DNA of 64,000 bases from Bacteroidales bacterium (GTDB lineage Bacteria > Bacteroidota > Bacteroidia > Bacteroidales > FEN-979): assembly GCA_038244085.1 (NCBI GenBank), contig JBBRTX010000001.1, forward strand, positions 138,064 to 202,063. The letters are read 5' to 3'. The position numbers and the translations under genes are program-made. Shown piece by piece: positions 1 through 33,425 of the stretch. The first letter of the stretch is position 1, and the number at the start of each line of letters is the position of its first letter. The notes below the pieces were generated by a model. That model made no database searches. It saw only the letters and a list, made by a program, of their open reading frames with translations, and was not told the DNA's origin.

Positions 1-917
1 GGCACATCACCAACATGACCTTCGGTTATACGTGGAATCAAAACAGGTTTATCCGCCATATTCTCAACCCGGTCGAGCTGAGTTTTGTAAAAATATACAA
101 GGATTCCACTTTCACTGCCAAACTGGAGCGCAGTTACGATAAACGGTTAAAGAATCAATATACGGATCACATGGTCGCGGGGCTGAAATACAATATCACC
201 TATAGCAGCCAGGATGTTACAAAACTTTCGGATTTTGTTTATATCCGGTCCAATATTGAAACAGGGGGAAATCTTGTATACCTGGTTGACAAGATATTCA
301 AACTCCCCAAAAGCGAAAACGGAGCCTACCATATCCTCAACACACCTTATTCCCAGTATTTGCGACCAGATATCGATATCAGATACTATCATTTGATTAC
401 GCCTGCCATTTCATGGGTTGCTCGTTTTTACGGCGGAATTGGCGTTCCTTATGGAAATTCCACCATACTTCCTTTCGAAAAGGCATTCTTTGCCGGAGGG
501 GCAAATGATCTGCGGGGCTGGAAAATGGGATCACTCGGTCCCGGAAGTTACCATACTGACACGATTGTTACGACCTTTGATCAAACCGGGGATATGCAAC
601 TGCAGTTCAATTTCGAGTACCGTTTCCCGGTTTATCGATTTATCCGCTCAGCATTCTTTGTCGATGCGGGGAATGTCTGGCTTCTGAATAATAATCCTGA
701 TTATCCCGGAGGAAAATTCGGTATCAGGACTTTTGCCCCACAGGTCGCTATTGATGTCGGCCTGGGCATACGAGCCGATTTCGATTTTTTTATCTTCCGG
801 CTTGATCCGGCAGTTCCCATCAGGGTACCGTGGACCGAAGGCAAAGGTCATTGGTATTTCAATAAAATTCAGCTGAGGGATATTCTTTGGAATTTCGGGA
901 TCGGTTATCCTTTCTAA
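1..917 (+). CDS. Omp85/BamA-TamA family outer-membrane beta-barrel protein, C-terminal part (5' end lies outside the window)
   Basis: The frame is open from nt 3, so the listed Met at 15 is internal. It carries surface-antigen (D15) barrel motifs (FFAGGANDLRGW, FVDAGNVW) and ends in an aromatic residue (...GIGYPF), as OMP barrels do. Confidence 0.7.
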   Translation, partial: HITNMTFGYTWNQNRFIRHILNPVELSFVKIYKDSTFTAKLERSYDKRLKNQYTDHMVAGLKYNITYSSQDVTKLSDFVYIRSNIETGGNLVYLVDKIFKLPKSENGAYHILNTPYSQYLRPDIDIRYYHLITPAISWVARFYGGIGVPYGNSTILPFEKAFFAGGANDLRGWKMGSLGPGSYHTDTIVTTFDQTGDMQLQFNFEYRFPVYRFIRSAFFVDAGNVWLLNNNPDYPGGKFGIRTFAPQVAIDVGLGIRADFDFFIFRLDPAVPIRVPWTEGKGHWYFNKIQLRDILWNFGIGYPF

Positions 918-2203
918 TTCTGCGTATTCAGATTTTGTAAAGCAATCAGCCGGTCGAACTGGCCACCCAGTTCACGAAAATACACCCAAATGGTATACTC
1001 ATTTTCTGTTTCCCAATGATTCCCTTCTACTAGAGAAAGATCTCCCTGTGTGGCGGTTTTCTCTTTGAAAGCATACAGATAGTTGTAATAACCCTGTTTC
1101 AATAATAAGGTCTTTGTATAACCTTTCCGGTCGAAATCAAAATCCATCCGGCTGTTATCATTGAGTTGCCAATCGGTAAGGGCACCCAAAAGGTACATCT
1201 GGCCATTGCTTCGAATGGCATCAAAAGGGAGAAAAAAATTGACCCAGGCATAATCGGCTTCAATATCGCTGTTTTGTGCACGTTCCTCATTTTTGATTAA
1301 TTTCCTTCCATTGATGTCCTTTTCAGTCGCATATCTTTTAAAGGTCCGTCTTTCATCATCCAGCAGAAAAACACGGGTCTCCGGTCCCTCCTTATCGATC
1401 TTTTTAATTCTTTCTGTCTGGTAGATCAGGCTTTTAATATCAAAAGCCCTGAATTCATTTCCGCCGGCAAATGAAATCTCATCCTCATATTTATAATCCA
1501 GCGATTCATTTCGGATGAATCTGGGTTTGATATCCCGGATGGCATTATCCCATCTGTCATTTTGAGTAACCACGACCTTTAATTGCCGGACCGGTTCATA
1601 TATCTTCATTCCGTTATATTGTATGGTAAAATCAACCTTCTGTTTTGAAAGCCTGTCTTCCATTTTTGTCGCCTGGAGAATTTCCCCTGTTATTCCCAGT
1701 GCAGTTCGCTCTGCAACCATAAAGCGCCAGGTAAAAGATGGTTTTTCCGGAACATCCAGGTATACCACCATCACATAATTTCCTGAAACCGACGGACGCA
1801 TTACACTTGATGGAAAGTCAAACGAATAATGGGTATACTTCACCAGAGTGTTGTATGAATAATCAGATTGTTCAATAAAATCCTCACTATAGCCGTCAAT
1901 ATAATCCGACTGCCGGATCTCTTCAGAGGTCTGCCAGTCGTTTTCGCAATGAATAATGGTGTATTTGTACCGTTTGAGATCCCCATCGAGATCATCAAAT
2001 GAAAGGATCAATCCATTATCATCTGTAAGACGCATGACAGGCATCGACATCTCGAATCCTTTTTTATAGAGAAGAACCGTATGGATATTCGGATCATAAA
2101 CCCGATTTTCATTTTGCCCGGAGGCAAATGTTGGGCAGGAAAAGCTAAATGAAAAGAAAACCAGGCTAATGAGAAGGATGAGATATTTTATCCGGAAGTT
2201 CAT
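914..2203 (-). CDS. T9SS plug protein family (DUF5103 / T9SS_plug_1st-like)
   Basis: 429 aa with a signal peptide. The N-terminal pattern (YDPNIHTVLLYKKGFEMSMPVMRLTDDNGLILSFDDLDGDLKRYKYTIIHCENDW) is what I recognise from DUF5103 proteins. The size resembles the Flavobacterium johnsoniae SprA-associated Plug protein, and the gene sits in a T9SS neighbourhood. Confidence 0.65.
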   Translation of the reverse strand: MNFRIKYLILLISLVFFSFSFSCPTFASGQNENRVYDPNIHTVLLYKKGFEMSMPVMRLTDDNGLILSFDDLDGDLKRYKYTIIHCENDWQTSEEIRQSDYIDGYSEDFIEQSDYSYNTLVKYTHYSFDFPSSVMRPSVSGNYVMVVYLDVPEKPSFTWRFMVAERTALGITGEILQATKMEDRLSKQKVDFTIQYNGMKIYEPVRQLKVVVTQNDRWDNAIRDIKPRFIRNESLDYKYEDEISFAGGNEFRAFDIKSLIYQTERIKKIDKEGPETRVFLLDDERRTFKRYATEKDINGRKLIKNEERAQNSDIEADYAWVNFFLPFDAIRSNGQMYLLGALTDWQLNDNSRMDFDFDRKGYTKTLLLKQGYYNYLYAFKEKTATQGDLSLVEGNHWETENEYTIWVYFRELGGQFDRLIALQNLNTQN

Positions 2204-4834: not shown

Positions 4835-6016
4835 CTACTGCTTACCCTTTTCCCCCAACTTGTCAAAATTGAAAAGCAGGGTGAACTGCATCGTATTCTG
4901 CAATGGATTGTTTTGTTCAAAAGGAATCAGGTATGAAAAATCGAGACCGAACACGTTATATCTTAAGCCGGCTCCGAGAGTTACATACTGGCGATTGCCT
5001 TTGTAAGGAGACTCATAAAAATAACCTGCCCGGATTGCGAATAATTTATTATACCAGTATTCGGCAGCCACACTTACATTGATTTCCCTCAATTCCTCCT
5101 GAAATCCGCCAGGGGCATCATAAAACGAATGGATGATTCCCGTGATAGCCGAAACATTCGGATCCATGCCATCGATAATTTTTCCGGCCGTATCGTAAAT
5201 GGGTGGTGTAGGAACCAGGAGTTTATTAAAATCCACCATGATGGAAACACGGTTAAATTCATCGATATCCATGGTAAATGATGGGCCTAAACGAAGATTG
5301 GTCGGGATAAAATCACTTTTGGTACTGGTGCTGTTATAAGAAATCTTCGCACCGATATTCGAGACATTAAATCCAAAATCAAAATAAGAGGCAGTAAGTC
5401 CCTTTATTTCCAATGGTTTATGAATATAAAGTGCAACGTCTGCCGCAACTGAAGTACCTGCCTGGGTCTGAATATTTGCATTGTTATAACCCGGTGTGAG
5501 GTTAGAATAAATAAATCTTCCTGCAACCGCACCGGAAAATACCTGACTGAATTTTCTTGCATACGTCGCATCGATGGCAAATTCATTGGGTTTAAAAGTA
5601 CCCTGCGGTGTTCCCTGGTCATCCATGTATTGAATTTCTCCCATGGAAAAATACCTCAAAGACACGGCAACAGCCTGCTTGTCACCAAATTTCTTAAATC
5701 CTGCCACCGAAGCCAGCCCGATATCATTGACCAGGCCTCTCAACCAAGGCACGTAGCCAATGCCAACGCCGAAATCCTTTTCGCTGAAGGCATACTTTGC
5801 CGGGTTCCAGTATAGTGAATAAACATCCGGGCTGCTTGAAACTCCAGCATCTCCCATTCCTCCTCCACGTGCATCAGGCGCGATCAGCAAAAAAGGGACG
5901 GCTGTGGTTGTAGGGTTATTTTTATCTGTGGAGGGTCTTATCTGAGCATAAGTTCCCGTTGTAATAATTACGCTTAAAACGAATAAAAAACAGAGTCTGA
6001 TTATCTTTTTTGGCAT
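4835..6016 (-). CDS. porV: T9SS outer-membrane shuttle/channel protein PorV (LptO)
   Basis: The motif AVPFLLIAPDARGGGMGDAGVSSSPDVYSLYWNPAKYAF is the PorV family N-terminal signature, and the rest is beta-barrel-like. The gene lies directly downstream of porU genes, as in F. johnsoniae. The start is placed at ATG 6016 (MPKKIIRLCFL...); the longest ORF reaches 6061. Confidence 0.85.
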   Translation of the reverse strand: MPKKIIRLCFLFVLSVIITTGTYAQIRPSTDKNNPTTTAVPFLLIAPDARGGGMGDAGVSSSPDVYSLYWNPAKYAFSEKDFGVGIGYVPWLRGLVNDIGLASVAGFKKFGDKQAVAVSLRYFSMGEIQYMDDQGTPQGTFKPNEFAIDATYARKFSQVFSGAVAGRFIYSNLTPGYNNANIQTQAGTSVAADVALYIHKPLEIKGLTASYFDFGFNVSNIGAKISYNSTSTKSDFIPTNLRLGPSFTMDIDEFNRVSIMVDFNKLLVPTPPIYDTAGKIIDGMDPNVSAITGIIHSFYDAPGGFQEELREINVSVAAEYWYNKLFAIRAGYFYESPYKGNRQYVTLGAGLRYNVFGLDFSYLIPFEQNNPLQNTMQFTLLFNFDKLGEKGKQ

Positions 6017-6109
6017 TCTGAATAAAATTTTAATTAGCATTTTTGAAAAATAAGTCCGCAAAACTAACGAATAATTTTTTTACATATTGTTTGAATGAGA
6101 AAAAGGAAA

Positions 6110-9100
6110 TTAATCTGTGATGATCAGTTTCTGGGAAGTCCGTGAAAAAGCGCCATCGGCCGAAAGGATGGATACGCTGTAGATATATAACCCGGCGCTT
6201 AACCGTGCACCGTTATTACCGGTTCCGTCCCATACGATTTCCACATGCCTCGGCATACCTTCCTGATAATCCTTTTCGATTTTCGTGACAATCTGTCCTT
6301 TGTAATCAAAAATATCGATCCGAAGACTGGTTTTTCCGCTGGTATTCGATGTACTGACCGAAAAAGTCGTTGGTTTGATGAAAGGGTTAAACGGATTGGG
6401 ATGATTGGAAACTTCCGTCATATTAATATCATCCTGGCTCCGCACATAAAATATGATCTCTTTGGTTGACGCGTTGTTATACATATCCCAGGCTTTCAAA
6501 CGCAGTGTGTGTTTCCCGGGACTCAGATCGGTAAAGAAATGCGAGAGCCTGCCTCTATTGCAAGAGCCGGTTTCGTAATTGAAGTAATCATTGAGAAGAA
6601 TGGGCTTGGTTGCATTATCCAGTGTGCAAAGGATATCATGTCCGATACCCAGACCGATGTAATTGATCCCATCCGGATCGTCGAGGGTGGCGAAAAGCAT
6701 CGTGTTTGGATTGGTTTTTCCTCCTGAAACAAATGTCACTGTATCCATATACATGGTAATCTCCGGGCCGATGTTGACAGGATTGACCGTAGGATCTTCA
6801 CCTCCAATTACAAGGGTGGTGTCGAAGCCCCAACCATCCTCTTCATTATTCTTGATATAATAACTGATCTTCCCTAAGCCGAAAGAGGGATTTATTCCTT
6901 TAGGTACGACAAAACAAAATTCAAACTCACCGTTCACGACATTGGTTTTTCCCCTAAAAATGAGACTGTTCTGTACTTTGTAGGGGGCCGAATAACTTTC
7001 GGGCGGGAAATTCCCAAGCGTGTAGGTGGTGACTGCTTTGTCATACACCGTCGGGGTAATGATTCCGTTATAGAGAACTTTCTTCCCCGCATCGTCCTGA
7101 ACCTGTCCCCTGATATTCACCATTGACAAGCCTAAGGCAGTATCAGGAACCGCATCAACAAGATGCGTATTGATGGAAGTCGTAACCACATTATGACGCG
7201 GGTAGGAAATCTGTAAGGCAGGATCACCAAAAAGGATGAAATTCTTCACATAAGCATTGTTGTCATTATCATTTTTTGAATAACGGATCAAATCGCCCAT
7301 CCGGGGATCCGGAGAACCGTCGGTGGATAAAAGGTGATTGAAGAAACTGGAATCCAGGTTAAAGTTCGTAGAGGCAAAGCTGAGGCGGGAGGTTGAAAAC
7401 AGTGCAATTGCGCCTCCATCAGCCCGGGTGATGATCATCTCACCCGCGGTAAAACGTTCAGGATTATCAAACCTGCTGAATTCACAGGTAGCTGTTATGA
7501 ATACCGGTAACCGGTGCTTGTTTGTCCAGCTGCCGATATCCTGCAAGGTGAGGATTTTTTCGGCGGCAAAACCATCTTCTCCTCCATGACCGGTATAATT
7601 GATCAGAAGCGTTCCTTCTGCAATGGTCCGGGAAATCTCATCATTCACCTGTGGAAGACGATACCCGGCCGGAGTCTGAACCATTTTATAGGCATCATTG
7701 TAAATCTTCTTCACATTAAAGACCGGGTAACGGCGTTTCACAATCTTTGAAAGGGTTTCTGCCTGGTTAAAATGCAAATTTTGGTTTTCATCATCTGCGA
7801 TGAAGGTAATCCTGTTTCTCCAGTCGCCAAAAACCGAATCCTCTGCTGAACAATAATGAATTACTTTATCCACCATTATTTTTGCTTCAGCCTCAGTTGA
7901 AACAGGAAACCGGCCGATACCCATATCGAGGGTGCCATTCGATTCGTACCCTTCGCCATAGCTCATCAAACCGTAAAAATCATCCGTGACAAAGGTTGTA
8001 TTGGAATTCAGATATTCAACCGACTGAAAAGCAGGAATGAAATCATTATTTCCTGGCAACCGGTTTTTCGGATCATAGGTTCCGTCGCCCATGAGCAGGA
8101 GATACCTGGGCTCAGCGCCACCGGATTTATCATACAGCATTTTCACAAAATCGCGTATGGCGGCTGGTTCCTTTCTGCCGCACCCAAATTCATTGTATAT
8201 TTCGGGTAAAGAAACAACCGTTACGGACAAGCCCAGATCTTGGTGGAACCCTGCCAGTCTTTCTGCTTCACTCCAGAAAAGAGGATCTGTGACAATCACC
8301 ATGGCAGCAGGGCTGAGGGCATGAAGATCCTGGTTGGGAACCGGCCCGCTGAGTGAAACAGGATAAAAGGAGGAGCCATCAAAGGCAACATATTCCTGAA
8401 GGGTATCGGTCAGCACCCGGAATCTTTCCGTGGAATCTGTCGAAACCGTTATCATCCGATGAATCTCATCTCTTTTGGTTACATCCCAAATTTCAATTCC
8501 CGGATGGGTGGATCTCATTCGGAATTCCGAACATTTCCCAATGGTGTTGGGATCCCTGAAACGCATCTGCGGCCCCGACCAGATCAGGTTTCTGTAACAA
8601 TTGATTTCGATATAATCCAACCAGCCGGTTGAATTGGTGGTTGGCAACTGATAGGTAATCTTCAGCCTGTAATCCGAACTAGGGGAAAAAACGGTGAGTG
8701 TTTTTTTAACCTCTCTGCTAAAAATATTCGGATGCGAATCGTCGCCGGCAGACACGATCACAGTATCATCCAGTACATTATTATCTCTCACCTTAAAAAT
8801 GTTGTTCTGCATTGATTTTGCCAAAAGATGCAGGGTTACTTTCATGCCGGTCAGGGAATCAATGTTCGGGAAGGAAAAAGGGAATTCGTAGGAATTTTTC
8901 ACGTTGCTGAAAAGCTCTCCTACCCAGGTTTTCCCTGATTTTATCAGATTGAGCGAATCAAGTTCATGAAAAGCATAATCATGAAATTTAAGGGAGGTCC
9001 AGGTAACCGGACTGTCACTGGAAGGCTTGTCCGTAATGCGCTTACCCGCCTCAGTTCCCACATTAACAAAGTAATAAAGTGAATCTGAATATAAATTTTT

Positions 9101-9517
9101 TGTGTGATAGAATCTGTTGTAATCGGAATTAAAGGTCCAGGTATCAGGAGGTTCGCCATAGAAGAGCACATAATCACCTGGTCCGAATGAATTATCATCA
9201 CCAACCACCACACGGATGGAATTTTCCATCAGGTCATCGATCCTTGCATCCCCATTTCGTTCGGGTAACATTCCACTGCCATTTCCGAAAATCCGGATCC
9301 GGGTAGGATCGAGGGTAGCCGGGTCGAAACCCATTTGCATGAAATTTTCATAGGTGATTTTGTGAATCCCGGCACGATACACTGAAATTTTAAACCACTT
9401 TCCTGAGGCAAGCACCGAATGCGGGTTAGGGTTGCCTGCCAAAAGAATCAGCGGAATCATGACCATCAAAAGAATGTAAATCTTCTTCATCATATGTTTT
9501 TTTCTGATCATGATCAC
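6110..9517 (-). CDS. porU: T9SS sortase PorU paralog 1 (peptidase C25 family, type A CTD)
   Basis: - It has the PorU-type N-terminal region (SVLASGKWFKISVYRAGIHKITYENF...IRIFGNGSGMLPE).
- YTGHGG and ITATCEFSRFDNPE motifs are taken as the clan CD His/Cys dyad.
- The C-terminus is a FlgD-Ig/T9SS type A CTD-like tail (LSAGLYIYSVSILSADGAFSRTSQKLIITD).
- The listed start is a GTV-type GTG that overlaps the upstream stop by 4 nt. ATG starts at 9511 or 9493 are equally possible. Confidence 0.85.
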   Translation of the reverse strand: MIMIRKKHMMKKIYILLMVMIPLILLAGNPNPHSVLASGKWFKISVYRAGIHKITYENFMQMGFDPATLDPTRIRIFGNGSGMLPERNGDARIDDLMENSIRVVVGDDNSFGPGDYVLFYGEPPDTWTFNSDYNRFYHTKNLYSDSLYYFVNVGTEAGKRITDKPSSDSPVTWTSLKFHDYAFHELDSLNLIKSGKTWVGELFSNVKNSYEFPFSFPNIDSLTGMKVTLHLLAKSMQNNIFKVRDNNVLDDTVIVSAGDDSHPNIFSREVKKTLTVFSPSSDYRLKITYQLPTTNSTGWLDYIEINCYRNLIWSGPQMRFRDPNTIGKCSEFRMRSTHPGIEIWDVTKRDEIHRMITVSTDSTERFRVLTDTLQEYVAFDGSSFYPVSLSGPVPNQDLHALSPAAMVIVTDPLFWSEAERLAGFHQDLGLSVTVVSLPEIYNEFGCGRKEPAAIRDFVKMLYDKSGGAEPRYLLLMGDGTYDPKNRLPGNNDFIPAFQSVEYLNSNTTFVTDDFYGLMSYGEGYESNGTLDMGIGRFPVSTEAEAKIMVDKVIHYCSAEDSVFGDWRNRITFIADDENQNLHFNQAETLSKIVKRRYPVFNVKKIYNDAYKMVQTPAGYRLPQVNDEISRTIAEGTLLINYTGHGGEDGFAAEKILTLQDIGSWTNKHRLPVFITATCEFSRFDNPERFTAGEMIITRADGGAIALFSTSRLSFASTNFNLDSSFFNHLLSTDGSPDPRMGDLIRYSKNDNDNNAYVKNFILFGDPALQISYPRHNVVTTSINTHLVDAVPDTALGLSMVNIRGQVQDDAGKKVLYNGIITPTVYDKAVTTYTLGNFPPESYSAPYKVQNSLIFRGKTNVVNGEFEFCFVVPKGINPSFGLGKISYYIKNNEEDGWGFDTTLVIGGEDPTVNPVNIGPEITMYMDTVTFVSGGKTNPNTMLFATLDDPDGINYIGLGIGHDILCTLDNATKPILLNDYFNYETGSCNRGRLSHFFTDLSPGKHTLRLKAWDMYNNASTKEIIFYVRSQDDINMTEVSNHPNPFNPFIKPTTFSVSTSNTSGKTSLRIDIFDYKGQIVTKIEKDYQEGMPRHVEIVWDGTGNNGARLSAGLYIYSVSILSADGAFSRTSQKLIITD

Positions 9518-12500
9518 TTTCCAGTGATCACCAGTTTCTGATTCACTTTGGTGACCGATCCGTCGTCACTTTTTGCCACCAATTGATAAATGTAAAGCCC
9601 TGGCGCGAGCAGGTTGTGGTTTTCTCCTGTTCCATCCCATTCCATTTCAAGCGGGGCAATGGTTTCCTCATCGAAAGTCTTGCTCAGTATCTTTACGATT
9701 TGGCCGGCAAAGTTGTAGATTCGAATTTGTATATAAAGTTGCCTGAACTTCTTCCCGGGTGTGAAAGAAAATTTGGTATGATCCTGCATCGGGTTGGGGA
9801 AATTGTAAACCGGGCTTATTGATAATCCAGGCGTTCCGGTAACAAAGAAAGTGATCTCTTTTACTGAACTGTTGTTGTATAAATCCCAGGCTCTCACTTT
9901 TAAAGTATGTTTCCCAGAAGAAAGATCGGTCAAGGCATACTTAACTGAACCACTGCTGTATTGATCAGGTTCCGGCTGGTAAAAGTCATTCAGGATCATC
10001 AAAGCAGCAGCATCTCCGTCCATTTCAGCCGAGATCTCATGTCCAATGCCCAGGTTGATGAAGTTAATCCCGTCAGGATCATTCAGGTTTGCCATCATTA
10101 TAGGATTCTTTCCTGTTTTTTCTCCATTTTTGAAGCTATAACTATCCATGTAAAGATCGATCTGAGGCCCGGCATTCACAGGATTAATGGAAGGGTCTTT
10201 CCCCCCGACAACCAATTGGCTGGAATATCCATTGGCATCGGTTGTTCCGTTGCGTGAATAAAAACTCATCTTGGCTTCACCCAGTGATGAGGTAACACTC
10301 ATCGGTACCACGAAAGTGCATTCAAAATCACCCTCCTTAACGGTAGCAGTCCCGGAGTGAAGCAGGCTTGTTTGGGATCTGAACTGTTCGGGATAACTGT
10401 TGGGTGTATTTCCGATGGTCATATGATAGGTCGGTTTATCAAAAACCGAGATAAACATCTCTCCGCTGAAGCCGGACATTTTTACACCAGTCAATCCCCG
10501 GACTTCCCCTTTAACCGTCACCCGCGACAATCCCATTGCCGTATCATGCACTGAAACAATCGAGTCCCCGTTAATGAGGGTGGCAGTCATATTATTCTCA
10601 GGAAAGGCGATTCCCTGCGCGGGATCTCCGAGCAGGACAAAGTTCCTGATGCTGTAATTGTTTCCGTTCCTGTTTTTGGAAATCCTTATCAGATCGCCCA
10701 TCCGTGGATTCGGAAGTCCATTACCCGGTATTAGATTCTGGAAAAAGCTGGTATCAAGTTTGAAATTGGCCGTAGCCAGCGCTTGACGCGTAGTTGAATA
10801 GAGGGCAATCGCTCCGCCTTTGGGCTGTAGAAGAACCATCTCCCCTGCTGTCAGCCGCTCCGGATTGTCGAACCGGCTGAATTCACAAGTGGCAGTAATA
10901 AAAACAGGAAGTTTATTGTAATTGTCCCAGTTGCTGATATCCGCGATGGTCAGCACTTTTTCAGCACTCCAGCCATCCTCCCCACCATGTCCGGTATAAT
11001 TAAGGATCAGGGTACCATCTTTCATGGCTTTATTAATGGCGGCATTTACATCAGGAAGCCTGTCGCCGGCAGGTGTTGAGACCATTTTGTAGGCATCCAG
11101 GTATATCTTATTCACATTATAAACCGGGTAATGGTCATTAACAATCTTTACCAATTGTTCTGCCTGGTGAAAGTGCAGATTATTGTTTTCGTCATCCGCG
11201 ATAAAGGTGAAAGTATTCTTCCAGGGCGAGCATATAGAGTCCGAATTTCCGGAATAATGAATGATTTTATCGACCATGGTTTTCGCTTCATCCATTGAAG
11301 AGACCGGGAAACGCCCGGTTCCCACTTCGATGCTCCCATTCGATTCATATCCTTCCTTCTCTCCCATGATACCAAAAAAATCATCCGATACATAGGTTCC
11401 TACTGGTTTGAGTGATTCCGCAGACTCAAAAACGGGGATCAGGTCATTATTGCCGGGGATCCGGTTCTTCGGGTCATAGGAACCATCTCCAAAAAGAAGC
11501 AGATATTTGGGCTGATCTGCTGTGGAGCCCAGGTCATATAGCATTTTGACAAAATCACGGATTGCGCTGATATCTTTTTTTCCGGAAGAGAACTCATTAT
11601 AGATCTCTTCGACATTCACCACGAGGGTGGAAAGGCCATTGTCTGAGTCATGAAATGCGGCAAGCCGTTTGGCTTCATTAAGAAACATCGGGGCAGCAAT
11701 GGTAATCATCTTAGCCGGTAAAGCCGAGTGAAGGTTCTGGTTTTCGACCTTTCCAATCAGCTGAACTGAATCAAACCCAGTCCCGTCAAAAGCGACAAAT
11801 TCCTTTAAAGAATCCGTTTTGAGGACGAATGATAATAGTTCTCCCGATAATTCAGGAATGATTTCCCTTACATCCGTTTCATTGGTGATGTTCCAGATTT
11901 TCACCGACGGCTGGATTCCTGAAAGGGAAAACCGCGTGATACGGTCCTTCCCGATACTCCCCGGATCGCGAAACGGCATTTGCGAACCACGGAATGACAG
12001 GAATCGCTGACAGGTAATCTCAATATAATCCAGCCAGCCTTGCGAGTTGTTGTTCGGCAAATCATACGTAATCCTGAAATTGGCCAGCGAATCAGCCATT
12101 GGAACGATCGCACCGGAGGTTTTTGGACGGGCGAAGATGTTAATTGAATTGGGGTCGGTATATTCCACTAGGATCGTGTCCACCGGTACGTCATTGGCGA
12201 AAACAAAGAAACGGCTGGGTTTTGAAGATCTTGATACCACCGATGTTTCTATCCTGATCGGAAATGCCGGATTGATCTCCGGAAAAGAAAGCGGGAAAGA
12301 ACAGGCCGTCTTATTGGCATCGAATAACTCACCAACCCATAGTTTCCCGGACTTGATAAGATTGAGCGAATCGGTTTCGTGAAAAACGTGATCGGTAAAA
12401 CTGTTGGAAAGATAATCCGGGACGGTATCCAAAGATGCCTGACCCAAAATCCTCTTGCCGGTCTCCCCTCCGCTGGTTATAAAGTAAAAGGAAAGGTCAG

Positions 12501-12906
12501 AATAAAGATTCGTAAAATGATGAAAGAGCCCGTTCTGGTAATTATAATCCCACCCTTCAGTGCCGGTACCATAGAAAAGAATGTAATCCTGCGGATCAAA
12601 TTTCCCGTCGCCACCATCAACCACCTCAATGGCGATCTCCCGGAGATCATCAGGCCTTGCACTTTCGTTGGATTCAGGAAGCATTTTTCCGCCATTTCCA
12701 AAGATACGGATCGTGGAAGGATCCACCGAGGCCGGATTCATTTCCATGTCGACCAGGTCCTGATAGGTAATCCTGTAGATCCCTGTTTTGGCAATGCCCA
12801 TCTTCCACCAATGTCCGCTAGATAGAACAGAAGACGCTTTGTGCGGATTACCAGCAAAACCGGTAAAAGTAAACAAGACCAGGATCAGTAAAACTATCCG
12901 CCGCAT
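9514..12906 (-). CDS. porU: T9SS sortase PorU paralog 2 (peptidase C25 family, type A CTD)
   Basis: 1130 aa, colinear with paralog 1 along its whole length. It has a signal peptide, the same YTGHGG and ITATCEFSRFDNPE motifs, and a CTD-like tail (LAPGLYIYQLVAKSDDGSVTKVNQKLVITGK). Confidence 0.85.
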   Translation of the reverse strand: MRRIVLLILVLFTFTGFAGNPHKASSVLSSGHWWKMGIAKTGIYRITYQDLVDMEMNPASVDPSTIRIFGNGGKMLPESNESARPDDLREIAIEVVDGGDGKFDPQDYILFYGTGTEGWDYNYQNGLFHHFTNLYSDLSFYFITSGGETGKRILGQASLDTVPDYLSNSFTDHVFHETDSLNLIKSGKLWVGELFDANKTACSFPLSFPEINPAFPIRIETSVVSRSSKPSRFFVFANDVPVDTILVEYTDPNSINIFARPKTSGAIVPMADSLANFRITYDLPNNNSQGWLDYIEITCQRFLSFRGSQMPFRDPGSIGKDRITRFSLSGIQPSVKIWNITNETDVREIIPELSGELLSFVLKTDSLKEFVAFDGTGFDSVQLIGKVENQNLHSALPAKMITIAAPMFLNEAKRLAAFHDSDNGLSTLVVNVEEIYNEFSSGKKDISAIRDFVKMLYDLGSTADQPKYLLLFGDGSYDPKNRIPGNNDLIPVFESAESLKPVGTYVSDDFFGIMGEKEGYESNGSIEVGTGRFPVSSMDEAKTMVDKIIHYSGNSDSICSPWKNTFTFIADDENNNLHFHQAEQLVKIVNDHYPVYNVNKIYLDAYKMVSTPAGDRLPDVNAAINKAMKDGTLILNYTGHGGEDGWSAEKVLTIADISNWDNYNKLPVFITATCEFSRFDNPERLTAGEMVLLQPKGGAIALYSTTRQALATANFKLDTSFFQNLIPGNGLPNPRMGDLIRISKNRNGNNYSIRNFVLLGDPAQGIAFPENNMTATLINGDSIVSVHDTAMGLSRVTVKGEVRGLTGVKMSGFSGEMFISVFDKPTYHMTIGNTPNSYPEQFRSQTSLLHSGTATVKEGDFECTFVVPMSVTSSLGEAKMSFYSRNGTTDANGYSSQLVVGGKDPSINPVNAGPQIDLYMDSYSFKNGEKTGKNPIMMANLNDPDGINFINLGIGHEISAEMDGDAAALMILNDFYQPEPDQYSSGSVKYALTDLSSGKHTLKVRAWDLYNNSSVKEITFFVTGTPGLSISPVYNFPNPMQDHTKFSFTPGKKFRQLYIQIRIYNFAGQIVKILSKTFDEETIAPLEMEWDGTGENHNLLAPGLYIYQLVAKSDDGSVTKVNQKLVITGK

Positions 12907-12961
12907 GAATGGATTTTTGAACTACAAAGATACGCAAAATAGCGAGGAGGATTTTTCATTT

Positions 12962-15900
12962 TCAACGGATTACCACAAGCTTGGCGCTTTTATACACGGT
13001 GGCTCCGTCGGGAGAACTTACCCTTACATTATAAATATAATTCCCGGAACTGATTTTATAGCCCCGGTCAGAAGTTCCATCCCATGTTATGGTATTGGCC
13101 CGGTACCCATTGGTAAAGAGGTTTGCATCGATCTTTTTCACCAATTGACCGGATAAACTATAAATGGAAATACTCACGTCCAGGTTTGAGTTCGGTTTGT
13201 TGTATTCAAAAGAGAAGGTGGTATGATCGATTAACGGATTGGGGTAATTGAAAAGATGATCCAGGGCAAGTTCTGCCGATGAAGCCACGACGAACTCAAG
13301 ATAGGCATCTGATGAATTATTGTAAACATCCCATACTTTCAGCTTCAGGGTATGCAACCCATCACTCAGTTTAAAGAAAGGATAAAGAATATTTCCGCTT
13401 TTAAACGTATTGGCGTCGGAAACATAATAGTCATTGACGATATCCTGATTTTTTGAATCATTATCCAGTGTAACGGTCAGGTCATGACCAATACCATTTC
13501 CTACTGTATTAATCCCGGATTGATCAGAAAGGATAGCAAGCATTTTGGGATTCTGATCGGTCAAACCCCCTGAAACAAAGGTCGTGTCGTTCATAAAAAG
13601 CCTGACCAGTGGTCCATTCACATCGGTTGATGAATTATTATTGTAACCACCTACGATCAGATTCGGATCATAGCCGTTTGCATCAGTTGATGAACTTCTG
13701 GCGTAATAGCTGATCTTGCCCACTCCATATTGATAAGCGATATCCTTGGGAACGATAAATGAAAAGGAGAAGGTTCCATTGGTCACATCCACTTTTCCCT
13801 TGTAAATAATATTTTTCCTCAACGAAAAATTAAAAGGAGTCCCGCCATCGAAAGCAAGGGTTGTTATTTCTGAAACTTTATCAAATACTGTAGGGAAAAC
13901 TGTTCCGTTAAAATCGGTGGCAGGATTTCCGTCCAGATCTCTGATTTCGCCAGCAATGGTGATGGTTTCGAGTGCGCTGATCGTATCAGGAATTGCGCCA
14001 ACAGGCTGCCCATTGATTGATGTTGTTACCACATTCAATGCAGGATAGGCCATCTTTATCGCCGGATCGCCGATAAGAATAAATTTTCGGGTTCCGAGAT
14101 CATTCCCGGAGGCGTTTTTTGAAATCACGATCAGATCGCCCAAGCTTGGGTAAACACCATTGGTTTTATTGAACGCATGACTATAAAAATTAGCAGTCAG
14201 GCTCACATTATCGCTTGCAAATGTTGGACGTGTAGTGGTGAACAGGGCAATTCCTCCTCCGGTCGGATTCAGGAAAACCCATTCCCCGGCCGACACCCAA
14301 TCGGGATCATCATATAGGGTGAATTCGCAGGTAGCTGTGACAAATACCGGCATCTTGTCAAAATTTTTCCAATTCCGGATATCCGGGATCTCCAGGACCC
14401 GTTCATGGGCCCAGCCATTTTTGCCTCCATGACCGGTGTAATTCATTATAAGGGCACCTTTCTCCACACGAAGGTTCAGGGCAGCATTGACATCAGGAAT
14501 ACGGGCTCCACCGGGTGTGGATATCTGTGGATAAGCGTCAAGATAGACCTTATCGATATTATAAACCGGATGGCCCTGCTGTACGATCGACGAAATAGAT
14601 TCTGTCTGCTCCATATGAAGATTTCCGTCCTCGTCATCAGCTACGAAACAAACTACATTTCTCCATTCATTTTTAACTGAGTCGCTGATTGAAACGTAGT
14701 GTTTGACTTTTGCCACCGCAGCTTTTGCTTCGCCGGCGGTCCTGACTGGGAATCTGCCAACCCCGATCTGCAGACTGTCGTAACTTTCCATCATTCCGTA
14801 GTAATCATCCGTTGCATAGGTACTTAAAGGGTTTAGCGATTCAAAAGACTGAATGGCGGGAACAAAATTTGTATTGTTGGCTTTCCTGTTTTTATAATCA
14901 TAGGAAGCATCTCCAATAAGAAGCATATATCTGGGTTCCCGGCCTGAAGGCGCCCTGTCGTAAATCATCTTTGCAAAATCGCGGATGGCGGTAATATCCT
15001 GAACCCCTGATGAAAATTCGTTGTAGATTTTTTCCGGTGTAGTGACCAGGACGGCAAGATGATCCTGGGTTGCATGAAAATTGGCCAGGTCATTGGCTTC
15101 ATTCATAAAGGACGGATGCGTAATGATCAGGTAGTCATAAGATCCAAGACCGTGAAGATTCTGGTTTTCAACGGCGGCTGAAGAGAGAATGGTTTTAAAT
15201 GCAGTACCATCATAAGCGATAAATTCACGAAGCGTATCCGACGGCAGGCGGAAATTGTAATCATTTCCAACATTTAATGCCTGAACTTCCCTTGTATTCC
15301 CCGGATCGGTAACATCCCAGATCGCCATGGGAGATCCTGTACCCGTGGCGGTGAAATCAGTGACCTTGCCACTTCCGAATCCGGCAACCGATCGGAAGTT
15401 CATCTGGCCACCAGACATTTTCAGCATCCGCATAACATTTATTTCGAGATAATTAAGGCATCCAATGGCTTCCTGCCCATTTTTCTGAAAGCTGATCCTA
15501 AGGTTGATCGGTGAGCCTGAAAGCGAAAAAGTGGCATCTGCAATTTTTTCGCTACCCCAGGCCGAATTGTCCGCTGTGCTTGTCGGCACTATCGGAATAT
15601 TCATCACATTTTGTCCATTGGCTGAAATCACAAAAGAGGTGGAAGTCTTGGTTGAATGGGCGGCAACCGCAGCTCTCAGAGTAACCGGATTAGAAATGTC
15701 AATATCTGCAAAACTGAAAGAATAATCCCTGACGGTGGTAAGCTCAAAGATGCTCCCGTCATACCACTGCCGGCCTGACTTGATCAGGTTGATTTCGTCT
15801 TTCTCATAAAACGAATAATCATTGAACCGGTTTACATGATCGGTAGCCGTCTGATTGGTGGATGCCAAAGGAGTGATTCGCTTACCTCCGGCCTGACCGT

Positions 15901-16795
15901 AAGTGATGAAATAACAGGTGTTATCGGAATAGATGTTTTTTGAATGATGAAAAAGCTGATCTGTACTGTTGAAGCTCCATTTATCCGGTCCTTCCCCATA
16001 AAAAAGAAGATAGTCGCTTGCGTCAAGTTTTCCGTCATCTTCTCCAACAACCCGGATGGATAATTCCCTGAGATCGTCAATCCTTGGAATTGAAACATTT
16101 TCGGGCAACATACCTCCTCCGTTTCCATAAACCCGGATGGTTCTGGGGTCGGCGGAAGCAAATCCAGGATCTAGGGCAACCAGGTCTGACTGGCTTAATT
16201 TATAGACACCTGTAGAATTTATCGCCAGCTTAAACCATTTACCCGCAGCAAGAACGGAACTTGCTGCATAAGTCCGGACAGATTTTTCTGTCATTTTTGA
16301 ACCACCGGGAATGATTTCCATGGTGAGGGTGAATGACACCAGTTTTTCTGTATTTCCTTCCGCATCTTTTCGCAAAGGTATGATGGAGACATTCAGGTAG
16401 GGTTGTTTCTTCTGGGAAGTGACCGAATACCGGATCACAGGCTCTGCGGTTATTCTTTCCTGATCGCGGATTCCTGATATTCCGGTTTTTTCATACACCG
16501 GCTGATCGATCCTTAACACAGCAATGGAATCGTTAGCAGTAAAGAGCCGGAATGATTCAATATACACCGGCAGGTATCCAAACCGTGAGGGAAAACTGGC
16601 AGCTCCTTTAAAGTTCAGAATCATGGCTGAATCACCGGAAGGGAGAACGCCTGTGTGTGCAGGGTTCCAGGCTATCTTGCGGCTATATTGAAACGGTTGG
16701 GCAGTTGCTATCGTGACCTGGTAAAAAATACAGAATACAATACAAAGCGTTGAAAGGCTTATTGAATGAAATATTCCGGAGACAACTTTTTGCAT
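12962..16795 (-). CDS. porU: T9SS sortase PorU paralog 3 (long form with ~250-aa extra N-terminal region)
   Basis: It has the same C25/PorU architecture (YTGHGG, VTATCEFTLYDDPD, CTD-like tail GNYIYNVRVSSPDGATVYKSAKLVVIR) but is more divergent. The start is placed at ATG 16795 (MQKVVSGIFHSISLSTLCIVF..., signal-like). The 71 codons upstream in the longest ORF look non-coding. Confidence 0.8.
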   Translation of the reverse strand: MQKVVSGIFHSISLSTLCIVFCIFYQVTIATAQPFQYSRKIAWNPAHTGVLPSGDSAMILNFKGAASFPSRFGYLPVYIESFRLFTANDSIAVLRIDQPVYEKTGISGIRDQERITAEPVIRYSVTSQKKQPYLNVSIIPLRKDAEGNTEKLVSFTLTMEIIPGGSKMTEKSVRTYAASSVLAAGKWFKLAINSTGVYKLSQSDLVALDPGFASADPRTIRVYGNGGGMLPENVSIPRIDDLRELSIRVVGEDDGKLDASDYLLFYGEGPDKWSFNSTDQLFHHSKNIYSDNTCYFITYGQAGGKRITPLASTNQTATDHVNRFNDYSFYEKDEINLIKSGRQWYDGSIFELTTVRDYSFSFADIDISNPVTLRAAVAAHSTKTSTSFVISANGQNVMNIPIVPTSTADNSAWGSEKIADATFSLSGSPINLRISFQKNGQEAIGCLNYLEINVMRMLKMSGGQMNFRSVAGFGSGKVTDFTATGTGSPMAIWDVTDPGNTREVQALNVGNDYNFRLPSDTLREFIAYDGTAFKTILSSAAVENQNLHGLGSYDYLIITHPSFMNEANDLANFHATQDHLAVLVTTPEKIYNEFSSGVQDITAIRDFAKMIYDRAPSGREPRYMLLIGDASYDYKNRKANNTNFVPAIQSFESLNPLSTYATDDYYGMMESYDSLQIGVGRFPVRTAGEAKAAVAKVKHYVSISDSVKNEWRNVVCFVADDEDGNLHMEQTESISSIVQQGHPVYNIDKVYLDAYPQISTPGGARIPDVNAALNLRVEKGALIMNYTGHGGKNGWAHERVLEIPDIRNWKNFDKMPVFVTATCEFTLYDDPDWVSAGEWVFLNPTGGGIALFTTTRPTFASDNVSLTANFYSHAFNKTNGVYPSLGDLIVISKNASGNDLGTRKFILIGDPAIKMAYPALNVVTTSINGQPVGAIPDTISALETITIAGEIRDLDGNPATDFNGTVFPTVFDKVSEITTLAFDGGTPFNFSLRKNIIYKGKVDVTNGTFSFSFIVPKDIAYQYGVGKISYYARSSSTDANGYDPNLIVGGYNNNSSTDVNGPLVRLFMNDTTFVSGGLTDQNPKMLAILSDQSGINTVGNGIGHDLTVTLDNDSKNQDIVNDYYVSDANTFKSGNILYPFFKLSDGLHTLKLKVWDVYNNSSDAYLEFVVASSAELALDHLFNYPNPLIDHTTFSFEYNKPNSNLDVSISIYSLSGQLVKKIDANLFTNGYRANTITWDGTSDRGYKISSGNYIYNVRVSSPDGATVYKSAKLVVIR

Positions 16796-16958
16796 AAATG
16801 TATTTATAAAAATGACTGTTTTCCAGTTAATAAGGATGAATCTGATCCATCCTGACCGAAGACTAAAAGGCAGGAAAATTAACGATCGACCTCCTGTTAT
16901 ATTGTTATTGTGGGGAACTATTTGGTATTTTAACGGAAAGACGACACAGGTTTGAAAA

Positions 16959-16966
16959 TAATTTTG
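16959..16966 (+). promoter_or_regulatory. candidate -7 promoter box (TAATTTTG) for the porP-like/gldJ unit
   Basis: Exact TAnnTTTG match 42 nt upstream of the ATG at 17008, inside the divergent intergenic region shared with porU paralog 3. Confidence 0.4.
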
Positions 16967-17007
16967 TAATATTGTAACCCTAATTATTATAGGCTGTATA
17001 AGCACCA

Positions 17008-17997
17008 ATGGTCAATAAAACGTTTATTATCATATTGTTGACAATGATCGCTTTCATGCCGCGAAGCTATGCTCAGGATCCGGAATTTTCGCAGTTTTAT
17101 GCAAATCCGTTATACCTGAACCCGGCTTTGGCAGGATCGACGGTGTGTCCCAGAATGATAGGCAATTTTCGTGATCAATGGCCAGCGATCGGAGGTGCTT
17201 TTGTTACCTATAATTTTTCGTATGACCAATATGTTGATTTTCTTCATGGCGGATTGGGTGTTCTTGTTACCGCCGACCGGACCGGAGGAGGAAATCTTAA
17301 TACCACATCTATCAGCCTGATGTACGCTTATAAATTTAATATCACCGATAAATTAAGTGCAAGCGGAGCCTTGCAGGCGGGCTATTACCAGCGTCATCTT
17401 GCTTTCGAAAAACTTACCTTTGAAGACATGATTGATCCCCGGGCGGGGTTTGTACTTCCAACTAGTGAAAAATCACCTGACCGGACCACCGTTGCTTCAC
17501 CCGATTTTTCGGCTGGCATCATGCTGGGTTATGATGAAAAATATTATGGCGGAGTAGCCGTTTCGCATTTGACACAGCCTAAAAACGGGTTTTATGCGGA
17601 TAACTCCAGTTCGCTCGAAATGAAAATTACAGCCCATGGAGGTGCTGTTTTTAACCTTGGAGAGAGTGGAATGGGCGAAGACAAGGAATTTTCCATTTCA
17701 CCCAACGTTCTCTACCAGCAACAGGGAAATTTCCATCAGTTAAATCTTGGCCTGTACCTAACGGTAGATCCATTTATTGGCGGCCTCTGGTTCCGGCATA
17801 ATTTCGAAAATGCTGATGCGCTTATCCCTTTCATTGGAATTCACTTTCAAAGTTTGAGAGTCGGATACAGTTACGACTATACCATCTCCAGCCTGAAAGG
17901 TGCGACTGGCGGGGCTCACGAGATTTCTGCATCCTGGCAATTTCCCTGTATTGAAAAAAGAAGACATATTAGGGCAATAAAATGCCCTAGATTTTAG
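17008..17997 (+). CDS. PorP/SprF family T9SS membrane protein
   Basis: A signal peptide is followed by QDPEFSQFYANPLYLNPALAG, the hallmark N-terminal motif of the PorP/SprF family. The 329-aa beta-barrel-like remainder fits the family. Confidence 0.85.
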   Translation: MVNKTFIIILLTMIAFMPRSYAQDPEFSQFYANPLYLNPALAGSTVCPRMIGNFRDQWPAIGGAFVTYNFSYDQYVDFLHGGLGVLVTADRTGGGNLNTTSISLMYAYKFNITDKLSASGALQAGYYQRHLAFEKLTFEDMIDPRAGFVLPTSEKSPDRTTVASPDFSAGIMLGYDEKYYGGVAVSHLTQPKNGFYADNSSSLEMKITAHGGAVFNLGESGMGEDKEFSISPNVLYQQQGNFHQLNLGLYLTVDPFIGGLWFRHNFENADALIPFIGIHFQSLRVGYSYDYTISSLKGATGGAHEISASWQFPCIEKRRHIRAIKCPRF

Positions 17998-18020
17998 TTA
18001 ATGTAGTTCAAATTCTTATT

Positions 18021-32303: not shown

Positions 32304-33401
32304 TTATTTTCCTCCTTTTCCCGGATAAGCCTCTATGCAAATATCGTCACCGATCTTTCTGATCTGCATATTTTTCAGTTCAATTGCATCTTCCATTCTC
32401 GAAATTCCTTCTCCACCCACGGGTGTTACAGCTTCTTTACCACCGATGATCTTAGGTGCGATGAAACTGATCACCTTATCGACCAAGCCTTCCCTGAGCA
32501 CGGAAAAGGCCAGTGTACTTCCGCCTTCAATCAAAACGCTGTCGATTCCCATTTTTCCAAGTGCATCAAAGAGAAAGGGCAGGTCGGTTTTATCATCCTT
32601 TACCGGGCAGATCAAAACCTGGGCTCCCATTCTTTCAAGGGCTTTAACCTTCTCCGGATCCGCCCGCTCTGTTGAAGCAAATAAAGTCAGCTGTGGATCA
32701 TTTTTCATGATATTCGCTTCAGGAGTGGTTTTGCAATAAGTATCCACGATGACTTTCAGGGGATTCCGGCTTTCTGCCGAGCGCCGGATATTCAGCATCG
32801 GATCATCATACAGAATGGTATTGACTCCCATCATGATGGCACTGTATGCATGACGCAAGTCGTGGACATAAGCCCTTGACTTTTCGCCGGATATCCATCT
32901 TGAGGCATTGGTTACGGTTGCGATTTTCCCATCCAGGGTCATTGCGGTTTTCAATATTCCAAAGGGTTTCCCGGTTGTGATATATTTTATAAAAACCAGG
33001 TTCAGTTGTTCAGCCTCTTCCGCCAGTATTCCGGTGGTTACCTCAATCCCGTGTTGCCGGAGAAAAAGGATCCCTTTACCTTTTACCAATGGATTGGGAT
33101 CTTCCATTCCAATCACCACTCTCCTGATTCCCCGGGAAACAATCAGCTCCACGCAGGGCGGTGTTTTTCCATGATGGGAACAAGGTTCCAGGTTAACATA
33201 CAAAGTGGCGTCTGTCAGGTCTTCGCCAATACCGGCTAACGCATTTACCTCGGCATGGGGAGCGCCAAAATGATGGTGATACCCTTCTGCGATCATTTTA
33301 TTATCCCTGACAAGCACTGCTCCGACCATCGGGTTGGGATTGACCCAGCCAATGCCTCTTCTGGCAAGCAGAATCGCCCGTCGCATATATTTTTCGTCCA
33401 T
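32304..33401 (-). CDS. ribD: bifunctional riboflavin biosynthesis deaminase/reductase RibD
   Basis: The CMP/dCMP deaminase zinc motif (HAEVNAL...PCSHHGKTPPC) is followed by a reductase domain (LIEGGSTLA). The start is placed at ATG 33401 (MDEKYMRRAILLA); the ATG at 33425 abuts the terminator T-tract. Confidence 0.9.
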   Translation of the reverse strand: MDEKYMRRAILLARRGIGWVNPNPMVGAVLVRDNKMIAEGYHHHFGAPHAEVNALAGIGEDLTDATLYVNLEPCSHHGKTPPCVELIVSRGIRRVVIGMEDPNPLVKGKGILFLRQHGIEVTTGILAEEAEQLNLVFIKYITTGKPFGILKTAMTLDGKIATVTNASRWISGEKSRAYVHDLRHAYSAIMMGVNTILYDDPMLNIRRSAESRNPLKVIVDTYCKTTPEANIMKNDPQLTLFASTERADPEKVKALERMGAQVLICPVKDDKTDLPFLFDALGKMGIDSVLIEGGSTLAFSVLREGLVDKVISFIAPKIIGGKEAVTPVGGEGISRMEDAIELKNMQIRKIGDDICIEAYPGKGGK

Positions 33402-33425
33402 GAATATGTCAGTGGTTCTGACCAT

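Follow-up and report, generated by a model that had tools for sequence, protein, structure and literature searches.

Three tandem PorU sortase paralogs with intact catalytic residues upstream of porV in a Bacteroidales bacterium

Reviews describe a single PorU, the sortase belonging to type IX secretion systems (T9SS), in the model organisms. Here we describe a stretch of 64,000 nt from a Bacteroidales bacterium (assembly GCA_038244085.1, contig JBBRTX010000001.1, positions 138,064 to 202,063 of the forward strand), hereafter called the window, in which three consecutive minus-strand porU genes are located directly upstream of porV. The genes are named P3, P2 and P1 in the order of the array, P1 being next to porV. 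According to profile and structure-based alignments, the three products are genuine PorU-family proteins, and their catalytic residues are intact. The array was pointed out in an earlier note on the nucleotide sequence of the window, in which it was set against the single PorU of the studied T9SS models; the latter statement agrees with the reviews.

One of the closest described proteins is PorU of Porphyromonas gingivalis (PG0026/PGN_0022; PDB entry 6ZA2). It keeps its own C-terminal domain (CTD), through which PorV is bound, and it is reportedly latent through a dimer, as summarized in a review. Enzyme activity, attachment of anionic lipopolysaccharide (A-LPS) and dimer latency have been demonstrated solely for this enzyme. 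It also contains the PorU-specific Arg722, which lies 32 residues past the catalytic Cys, has no gingipain equivalent and has been proposed for the sortase chemistry (Gorasia 2015). The three paralogs resemble P. gingivalis PorU in full-length homology, in the family C25 residues His, Cys690 and Arg722, in a presumably retained CTD and in the position of the gene beside porV. P1 and P2 also share its short architecture without an N-terminal extension. The difference is the copy number, which is one in P. gingivalis and three in the window.

In most Bacteroidota, PorU has a long form that is recognized by the models NF052318 and NF033707. P3 has this architecture, but in the window it coexists with two short-form paralogs. 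The gingipain zymogens of RgpB and Kgp (PDB entries 4IEF and 5MUN) belong to the same family C25, and the gingipain prodomain keeps the enzyme latent, according to a review. The prodomain is a β-sandwich placed N-terminally after the signal peptide, and the modeled N-terminal module of P3 appears to have the same fold and position, although no sequence similarity between them was detectable. Gingipains are cargo proteins with a cleaved CTD, whereas PorU is a component of the machine. PorU-related paralog families have already been recognized by curators in the form of PorU2/PorV2 (NF052324/NF052325), a putative second PorU-like sorting system. The paralogs of the window are bona fide PorU and do not belong to PorU2: they reach 164.2, 181.6 and 194.2 bits on NF052324, whose cutoff is 450 bits, and for the neighboring PorV the score is 25, against 325 for PorV2.

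The Gram-positive sortases (family C60) provide a functional analogy. SrtA is the housekeeping enzyme, SrtB and SrtC are specialized, and these sortases are often encoded beside their substrates or partners and have their own regulation. The likeness is that several Cys/His/Arg transpeptidases are present per cell. The fold and the family are unrelated to those of PorU, and no distinct sorting motifs are evident in the window.

Identity and catalytic residues of the paralogs

The PorU equivalog model of NCBIfam (NF033707, 'type IX secretion system sortase PorU', cutoff 420 bits) matches P1, P2 and P3 with 1167.7, 1212.0 and 1309.3 bits, respectively, and model positions 1 to 1094 of 1095 are covered in each. 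These full-length matches bear out the earlier claim of three consecutive and co-linear PorU genes. The Pfam domain Peptidase_C25 (PF01364) is found in all three proteins with E-values of about 1e-101 to 1e-106 (6.5e-101 for P3). The end-to-end alignments with the structure of P. gingivalis PorU (6za2) gave 399 bits for P1, 431 bits for P2 and 495 bits for P3, and the E-values span 1e-118 to 1e-147 (8e-128 for P2). The alignment of P3 covers its residues 167–1276. As P. gingivalis PorU is nearer by score to the long-form P3 than to P1 or P2, the absence of the N-terminal domain from the P. gingivalis enzyme is probably an independent loss. In pairwise protein comparisons, P1 and P2 are 49% identical, and P3 is 41% identical to P1 or P2. 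P3 had been called the most divergent copy. It differs most from the other two, but it is at the same time the most canonical PorU, with the best scores on the PorU profile and on 6za2.

The motifs YTGHGG and TATCEF had been taken for the His-Cys dyad of family C25. In the HMMER alignment with 6za2, the NYTGHGG and TATCEF of the paralogs are placed opposite NYAGHGG and TATCDF of P. gingivalis PorU. The His and Cys residues are in register with His211 and Cys244 of RgpB (1cvr) and with Cys690 of P. gingivalis PorU, and the assignment is confirmed by these alignments for all copies. Gingipains match the paralogs weakly and in the catalytic domain (E about 1e-5). The Arg residue equivalent to Arg722 is also present, as R703 in P1, R707 in P2 and R856 in P3. 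In a set of 124 sequences, composed of 121 PorU copies from 79 related loci and P1–P3, the columns of the His, the Cys and this Arg are invariant in 124 of 124 copies, and the interpretation of the paralogs as pseudo-enzymes is ruled out by this result. When the catalytic cores of the long-form and short-form clades (described below) are compared, 203 columns reach a conservation of 90% or more with the same residue in both, and only 9 are conserved but different. One site that discriminates the clades is located seven residues past the Cys (N681/D), where Asn is found in the short clade and Asp in the long clade.

All three proteins have the features of a Sec-type signal peptide, namely N-terminal basic residues and, after them, a hydrophobic stretch of 12 aa or more with a mean Kyte–Doolittle value of 2.6–3.2. 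The signal peptides, which had also been claimed before, were called here by a simple hydrophobicity heuristic. For the claim that each copy ends in a type A CTD-like tail, the evidence is uneven. The PorU model and the 6za2 alignment run to the last residues of P1, P2 and P3, the conserved Lys of the last strand is kept, and the C-terminal tails are of the K-L-V/I type in all three. On the generic type A CTD model (TIGR04183, cutoff 23 bits), P3 alone is above the cutoff with 24.8 bits; P2 is below it with 19.9 bits, and P1 gave no match to this model. Judging from the sequences, all three are very probably functional PorU-type enzymes, which would be exported by the T9SS, docked on PorV by the CTD, and able to remove the CTDs of cargo proteins.

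The start codons require some comment. The maximal open reading frame (ORF) of P3 extends from 12962 to 17008 (1348 aa) with a TTG start. The ATG at 16795 is preferred because the TTG frame would run into the start of the divergent neighbor, and because the product from the ATG has a signal peptide. The frame of P1 reaches a GTG at 9517 (6110..9517, 1135 aa). P3 and P2 are separated by 55 nt. Between the stop codon of P2 (9514–9516) and the start candidates of P1, there is either a gap of about 20 nt or an overlap of 2 nt, and the gap between P1 and porV is 48–93 nt. The spacing of P3 and P2, the abutting or overlapping of P2 and P1, and the downstream position of porV are all as reported before. 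About 250 extra N-terminal residues had been assigned to P3; the actual number is about 154, since the anchor of the PorU core is at residue 180 in P3 versus residue 26. The order P3-P2-P1-porV-ispF, with identical proteins, was also found on two independent metagenome contigs (L001 and L002). The source samples are SRR19962012 and SRR19962014, and the longest P1-bearing contig measures about 275 kb.

Age of the copies and tandem porU genes in related genomes

Neighbor-joining (NJ) trees with bootstrap were calculated from the 121 PorU copies and P1–P3, and a denser tree was calculated with 96 short-form sequences. The long-form and short-form clades are each supported at 100% (NJ). The long-form clade consists of P3 and the operon-first copies of the closest genomes, and P3 is sister to the first copy of locus L003 at 97–99.5%. 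The short-form clade consists of P1, P2 and the porV-proximal copies of the closest genomes. When the same genome pairs are compared, the long copies are better conserved than the short ones in ten of ten cases, with means of 57.3% and 51.6%, respectively. According to the trees, a broad Bacteroidia clade radiated after the long/short pair had arisen, and the two genes have stayed in tandem upstream of one porV.

P2 clusters, at 100%, with the sole short copy present in two-copy genomes (P0002–P0007 and L085), to which it is 55–56% identical. P1 is basal to a clade holding the short copy of L003, with a support of 60%. Seven topologies were compared by maximum likelihood (Poisson+F+Γ). The topology (P1,Y),(P2,X) was favored with log-likelihood differences of 9.7–14.3 and a RELL (resampling of estimated log-likelihoods) value of 0.70. 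The arrangement of P1 and P2 as sister genes is disfavored: it received 32% in the NJ tree and a RELL value of about 0.11, and denser sampling places P2 with the short copies of other genomes. The consensus site-pattern counts for the branching of P1 and P2 are ambiguous, and some of them favor P1+P2. The reading in which P1 and P2 are not mutually closest, each being nearer to the single short copy found in other genomes, is favored, not settled.

The best shared DNA tracts between the three genes have identities of 73–75% over 72–182 nt. A recent tandem duplication or gene conversion is ruled out by the protein identities of 41–49% and by the lack of high-identity DNA tracts. Because such tracts are absent, the extra short copy is considered to be old. 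By these comparisons, the locus is an ancient long/short pair with an old extra short copy, and not a fresh triplication. The extra short copy was either retained from an early duplication that was mostly lost elsewhere, or laterally acquired. The best non-self homolog of P1 among 5.8 billion proteins is only 53% identical, and the genes around the array are 50–81% identical to those of all related loci. The lineage of the window is therefore without a close sequenced relative.

In the survey of loci, one genome per GTDB species was scanned with the alignment of the three paralogs, and the best 79 loci were kept. The sample is biased toward the relatives of the query, and the counts do not represent a phylum-wide frequency. 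With tblastn, 41 loci with two tandem PorU genes directly upstream of porV were detected, and one locus (L007) with three. Among the loci with enough flanking DNA to be informative, 32 have two copies and L007 has three, against 24 with a single copy, and at least 33 of the 57 are therefore multi-copy. The two-copy loci are labeled Bacteroidales, Prolixibacteraceae, Draconibacterium and Lentimicrobiaceae. Among the single-copy loci are Flavobacteriales, Chitinophagaceae, Chryseobacterium and Sphingobacteriaceae.

Two further triple loci, L082 and L084, were obtained by a protein search of 5.8 billion sequences. L082 is a metagenome-assembled genome at NCBI (GCA_026391355.1) with exactly the synteny of the window, and one of the L082 proteins is present on 14 contigs. 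L084 is a Logan assembly. NCBI gives the proteins of the triple loci the plain name 'type IX secretion system sortase PorU'. Two orthologous subclades, united at 99%, are made up of the two short copies of L007, L082 and L084. The triple locus of L007 appeared at first as an independent duplication (98.5%), but with L082 and L084 added it becomes a duplication shared by the lineage. As these subclades represent a separate, inherited duplication, triple loci arose at least twice. The triple copy is a rarer elaboration of the common two-copy theme, and not a one-off. The earlier note had named, as an outcome that would refute its reading, that multi-copy porU is common and already described. The first half of this outcome was found, as counted above. 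No description of multiple, paralogous or tandem PorU genes was found in full-text literature searches. Multi-copy porU is common in related genomes, yet apparently undescribed.

Some of the related loci show features of their own. In L085 (6081–9944), the long-form gene located upstream of the short copy is broken up into four ORFs of 151, 387, 303 and 393 aa; this gene is either a pseudogene or the result of frameshift errors in a long-read assembly. Two extra tandem PorV-like genes follow porU in L031 (6167–9141), and one PorV and two weaker PorV-like matches follow porU in L060 (13540–17365). Duplication at this locus is therefore not confined to porU. In L021 (6488–14350), the two PorU copies are mutually closest in the NJ tree, and this position points to a duplication that was independent and comparatively recent. 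Around the His and the Cys, the sequence of the second L021 copy is atypical, and both residues are kept.

The N-terminal domain of the long form and the promoter motifs

The N-domain model NF052318 ('PorU long form') matches P3 at 41.4 bits, with a cutoff of 40. A custom hidden Markov model (HMM) of the N-terminal domain matches P3 (Table 1), 41 of 43 operon-first copies and 33 of 39 single copies; no match was obtained in P1, P2 or any copy of the short clade. The AlphaFold2 model of residues 1–189 of P3, calculated from a 13-sequence alignment, has a mean predicted local distance difference test (pLDDT) score of 80. It shows a β-sandwich followed by a low-confidence linker (residues 167–189, pLDDT 40–45). 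The linker is a possible processing site.

The P3 model was compared with the PDB using Foldseek. The top six matches are the prodomains of Kgp (5mun) and RgpB (4ief) only, with a probability of 1.00, TMq values of 0.44–0.45 and E-values of about 1e-4, and the seventh match has an E-value of 0.27. Using the trimmed domain of a homolog that is 24% identical (pLDDT 90.3), the same six chains were at the top, with TMq values of 0.55–0.57, and the next match has an E-value of 0.21. Over both models, the prodomain matches have a probability of 1.00 and E-values from 8e-5 to 7e-4. No description of the fold or role of the PorU long-form N-terminal domain, or of a PorU prodomain, was found in the literature.

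The most conserved stretch of the domain, at about residues 138–156 of P3 (about 16328–16384 of the window, minus strand), forms a loop-strand motif, LPxRxNPxTGxIExLVSF, in which a Pro is invariant and a basic residue is conserved. This loop is a candidate functional, perhaps inhibitory, loop; no mapping onto the inhibitory loops of RgpB and Kgp was obtained. In L084 (6493–9942), the operon-first copy falls in the long-form clade, yet it has 1149 aa and is without the prodomain-like domain. This loss looks real, because only about 250 nt separate the copy from the upstream porP. Loss of the N-terminal domain seems to be recurrent.

The -7 promoter element of Bacteroidetes is TAnnTTTG. On the minus strand, this motif falls in the short gaps just 5' of the starts of P2, porV, rpsF and the plug gene, and none is present in the P2–P1 gap. 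In 10 of 15 related multi-copy loci, TAnnTTTG occurs in the gap before a short-form copy, whereas about 0.7 of 15 is expected by chance. It is often located exactly 6 nt past the upstream stop codon. Scans of 3500–18200 for sigma-70 promoters and intrinsic terminators gave counts equal to those of shuffled controls; since the promoters of Bacteroidota are of another type, these scans carry no information. The placement of the motif suggests three transcription units, which would be P3 alone, P2 with P1, and porV. This reading accords with the prediction, given in a review, that porU and porV of P. gingivalis are independently transcribed.

Possible roles of the paralogs and surroundings of the array

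We favor, with moderate confidence, the interpretation that the window encodes three old PorU paralogs of the same chemistry, which differ in latency and in the timing of production. P3 is the canonical long form, in which a signal peptide is followed by a predicted prodomain-like β-sandwich of about 130 aa, a disordered linker, the core common to PorU proteins and a CTD that is probably retained. The short forms, P1 and P2, begin directly with the PorU core, as P. gingivalis PorU does. We infer that each paralog is exported by the T9SS, stays on PorV via its uncleaved CTD, and cuts the CTDs of cargo proteins by the same Cys/His(/Arg) chemistry. In P3, the prodomain-like module may restrain the enzyme in cis. 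P2 and P1, which have no such module, would be transcribed from their own promoter. As the outcome, several attachment or processing complexes would be present under different regulation, with a possible division of labor among them.

The three paralogs are probably not redundant, because the orthologous copies have been retained since ancient times, their rates are asymmetric, their architecture is different and a separate conserved promoter motif is present. The same features of the sequences make sub-functionalization, which had been proposed before, plausible. The clearest difference between the paralogs is the prodomain-like N-terminal module, and this difference points to regulation or latency rather than to specificity. 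As the axis along which the copies diverged, a change of specificity has less evidence in its favor.

Several observations weigh against the favored interpretation. With only 9 clade-specific conserved substitutions in the catalytic core, there is little sign of altered substrate specificity in the sequences. The branching order of P1 and P2 is not firmly resolved. The proposed link to the gingipain prodomains is drawn from the fold of the models and from the context, in that PorU itself is a C25 protein, and the template modeling (TM) scores are 0.44–0.57. The Pfam model Propeptide_C25 gave no match at E<=10 among 13 homologs of the N-terminal domain, and a profile search of the PDB with this domain was empty. 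Unlike the gingipain prodomains, the module is about 450 residues of PorU-core sequence away from the catalytic domain. No exact TAnnTTTG was found upstream of P3. Across the whole window, the motif occurs at the level of chance (45 matches versus 44.4 expected), and its signal lies only in the placement in short gaps and in the conservation in related loci. Moreover, the long form alone (in most Bacteroidota) or the short form alone (in P. gingivalis) suffices elsewhere, and therefore the long and short forms need not be mechanistically interdependent.

Other explanations were considered. Specialization by cargo class or attachment chemistry, in which each PorU would have its own subset of CTDs or its own acceptor, or would release cargo instead of attaching it, is possible but clearly less probable than the favored interpretation, with which it is compatible rather than exclusive. 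Diverged paralogs have been retained for a long term, as would be expected, and an analogy is offered by the several sortase classes of Gram-positive bacteria, which act on distinct substrates. How PorU chooses between the release and the anchoring of cargo 'remains to be unravelled', according to a recent review. The active-site neighborhood, however, shows no sign of remodeling beyond N681/D, and a single type A CTD protein was seen in the 64-kb window. A serious rival, which we regard as rather unlikely, is a hetero-oligomeric arrangement or an activation cascade. The paralogs would pair with one another instead of forming separate complexes, and the hairpin or prodomain of one copy would block the active site of another. 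In this case, the extra copies would chiefly regulate or activate the canonical enzyme; for example, the short forms could remove the prodomain of the long form. An 'intermolecular latency' of the PorU homodimer is described for P. gingivalis, and PorU reportedly helps to remove the prodomains of gingipains (both from a review). In the informative loci, short-clade copies always have an upstream long-clade partner, and the prodomain-like module is confined to one class. A purely regulatory partner, however, should sometimes lose its catalytic residues, and these are invariant in every copy of the set; in addition, the long form works alone in most Bacteroidota.

The copies might also be redundant, doing the same job on the same cargo and being kept for a higher or more robust supply of PorU. 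The highly conserved catalytic core, with its 203 shared columns against 9 discriminating sites, would fit this explanation, and so would the low sequence specificity of P. gingivalis PorU noted in a review. We consider it improbable. Dosage duplicates are usually young and alike, whereas these paralogs have the low identities given above and show no gene conversion. The orthologous clades to which they belong have been kept by many species, their domain architectures and evolutionary rates are unlike, and a conserved promoter motif of its own precedes the short copy. It is very improbable that one or two of the copies are decaying or silent relics, or secreted C25 proteases, that is, cargo rather than components of the T9SS. 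The TIGR04183 results for P2 and P1 and the faster evolution of the short copies could be read in this way, but the ORFs are intact (1127–1277 aa) and co-linear with the full PorU model, on which they score at least 1168 bits (rounded). The sequence is identical on independent contigs, the clades are conserved, the key residues are invariant, and gingipains match only weakly, as described above.

A broader and rather doubtful extension of the favored interpretation is a two-tier PorU in many Bacteroidia, one that would stay hidden in model organisms with a single PorU. It would combine a canonical, prodomain-bearing PorU that is latent in cis with one or two separately transcribed, prodomain-less and fast-evolving paralogs, all docked on one PorV. 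The paralogs would set the balance between the release and the anchoring of cargo, or activate each other. If this were true, the N-terminal domain of the long form would be a true homolog of the gingipain prodomain, and zymogen control would be ancestral to family C25, including PorU.

The positions of the main features are listed in Table 1. The block downstream of P1 includes, in this order, porV, ispF, rpsF, rplI, a gene for a SpoU-type methyltransferase and the T9SS plug gene, and the same order through the plug gene is found in L082 and L085. The synteny with the PorP/SprF-family gene is common to L082, L084 and L085, and the linkage to porV is kept in nearly all related loci. The GldJ-like protein is shorter than the model TIGR03524, which has 559 positions. 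Its gene sits with the PorP/SprF-family gene beside the porU array, and likewise in L082, L084 and L085. Neither porQ nor porZ was found among the window genes that were annotated.

Table 1. Positions of the porU array, its domains and motifs, and neighboring genes in the window.
Feature	Position	Strand	Remarks
P3, long-form porU, first gene of the array	12962..16795	-	1277 aa from ATG 16795
P3 N-terminal β-sandwich, residues 34–163 (130 aa)	16307..16696	-	predicted; AlphaFold2 model and Foldseek; HMM E 1.6e-41
P3 Peptidase_C25 domain	14051..15133	-	His789 codon 14429–14431; Cys823 14327–14329; Arg856 14228–14230
P2, short-form porU, middle gene	9514..12906	-	1130 aa
P2 Peptidase_C25 domain	10618..11709	-	His640 10987–10989; Cys674 10885–10887; Arg707 10786–10788
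P1, short-form porU, porV-proximal	6110..9493	-	1127 aa from ATG 9493 (gene callers, independent contigs)
P1 Peptidase_C25 domain	7211..8302	-	His636 7586–7588; Cys670 7484–7486; Arg703 7385–7387
TATCTTTG, TAnnTTTG match	12925..12932	-	19 nt upstream of the P2 ATG, in the 55-nt P3–P2 gap
TAGTTTTG, -7-like motif	6059..6066	-	about 43 nt upstream of the porV ATG 6016
porV	4835..6016	-	NF033710 494 bits, Pfam PorV; 393 aa from ATG 6016 (gene call on L001/L002); ORF to TTG 6061
T9SS plug protein, end of the syntenic block	914..2203	-	NF052315 407 bits
PorP/SprF-family outer-membrane protein, divergent	17008..17997	+	TIGR03519 249 bits
GldJ-like lipoprotein, 492 aa	18021..19499	+	TIGR03524 453.3 bits versus cutoff 458.2

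Farther from the array, a 792-aa protein (33683–36061, minus strand) has the type A T9SS sorting domain (PF18962, 46 bits) as its only Pfam match. It is a candidate substrate of PorU, encoded about 17 kb from the porU array, and it is the only type A CTD protein seen in the window. Four consecutive giant genes (39644–60673, plus strand) encode proteins of 1314, 1740, 2229 and 1521 aa with arrays of PKD_5/PKD_6 repeats. Each of them ends in a Fib_succ_major domain (PF09603), and the first also has an IgGFc_binding domain; no match to a T9SS CTD was obtained in any of the four. The sole Rfam match in the window is a full-length flavin mononucleotide (FMN) riboswitch (RF00050, 122.9 bits; 33501–33624, minus strand), which lies upstream of ORFs at 32304..33425 and beyond. 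At 26132–28297 on the plus strand, a gene encodes an aldehyde:ferredoxin oxidoreductase (AFOR_N and AFOR_C domains), which suggests an anaerobic lifestyle of the source organism.

The three proteins are of a known kind, PorU, and it is the multi-paralog organization and the prodomain-like module of the long form that were not found described. The surprise expressed in the earlier note is weakened by the commonness of multi-copy loci. If the copies were merely redundant, the finding would shrink to an annotation note. Current T9SS models, derived from P. gingivalis, Flavobacterium johnsoniae and Tannerella forsythia, take it that a cell has one PorU. Among environmental Bacteroidia, a large group has stably retained two or three PorU paralogs with intact catalytic residues beside one porV, and the paralogs differ by a gingipain-prodomain-like module and a promoter motif of their own. 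The prodomain-like fold of the model suggests a regulatory link between PorU and the gingipain zymogens, of which no description was found. Culturable two-copy relatives (Prolixibacteraceae and Draconibacterium) make a possible division of sorting outcome or latency experimentally tractable. The pattern bears on the control of cargo release and anchoring, and on the control of PorU activity.

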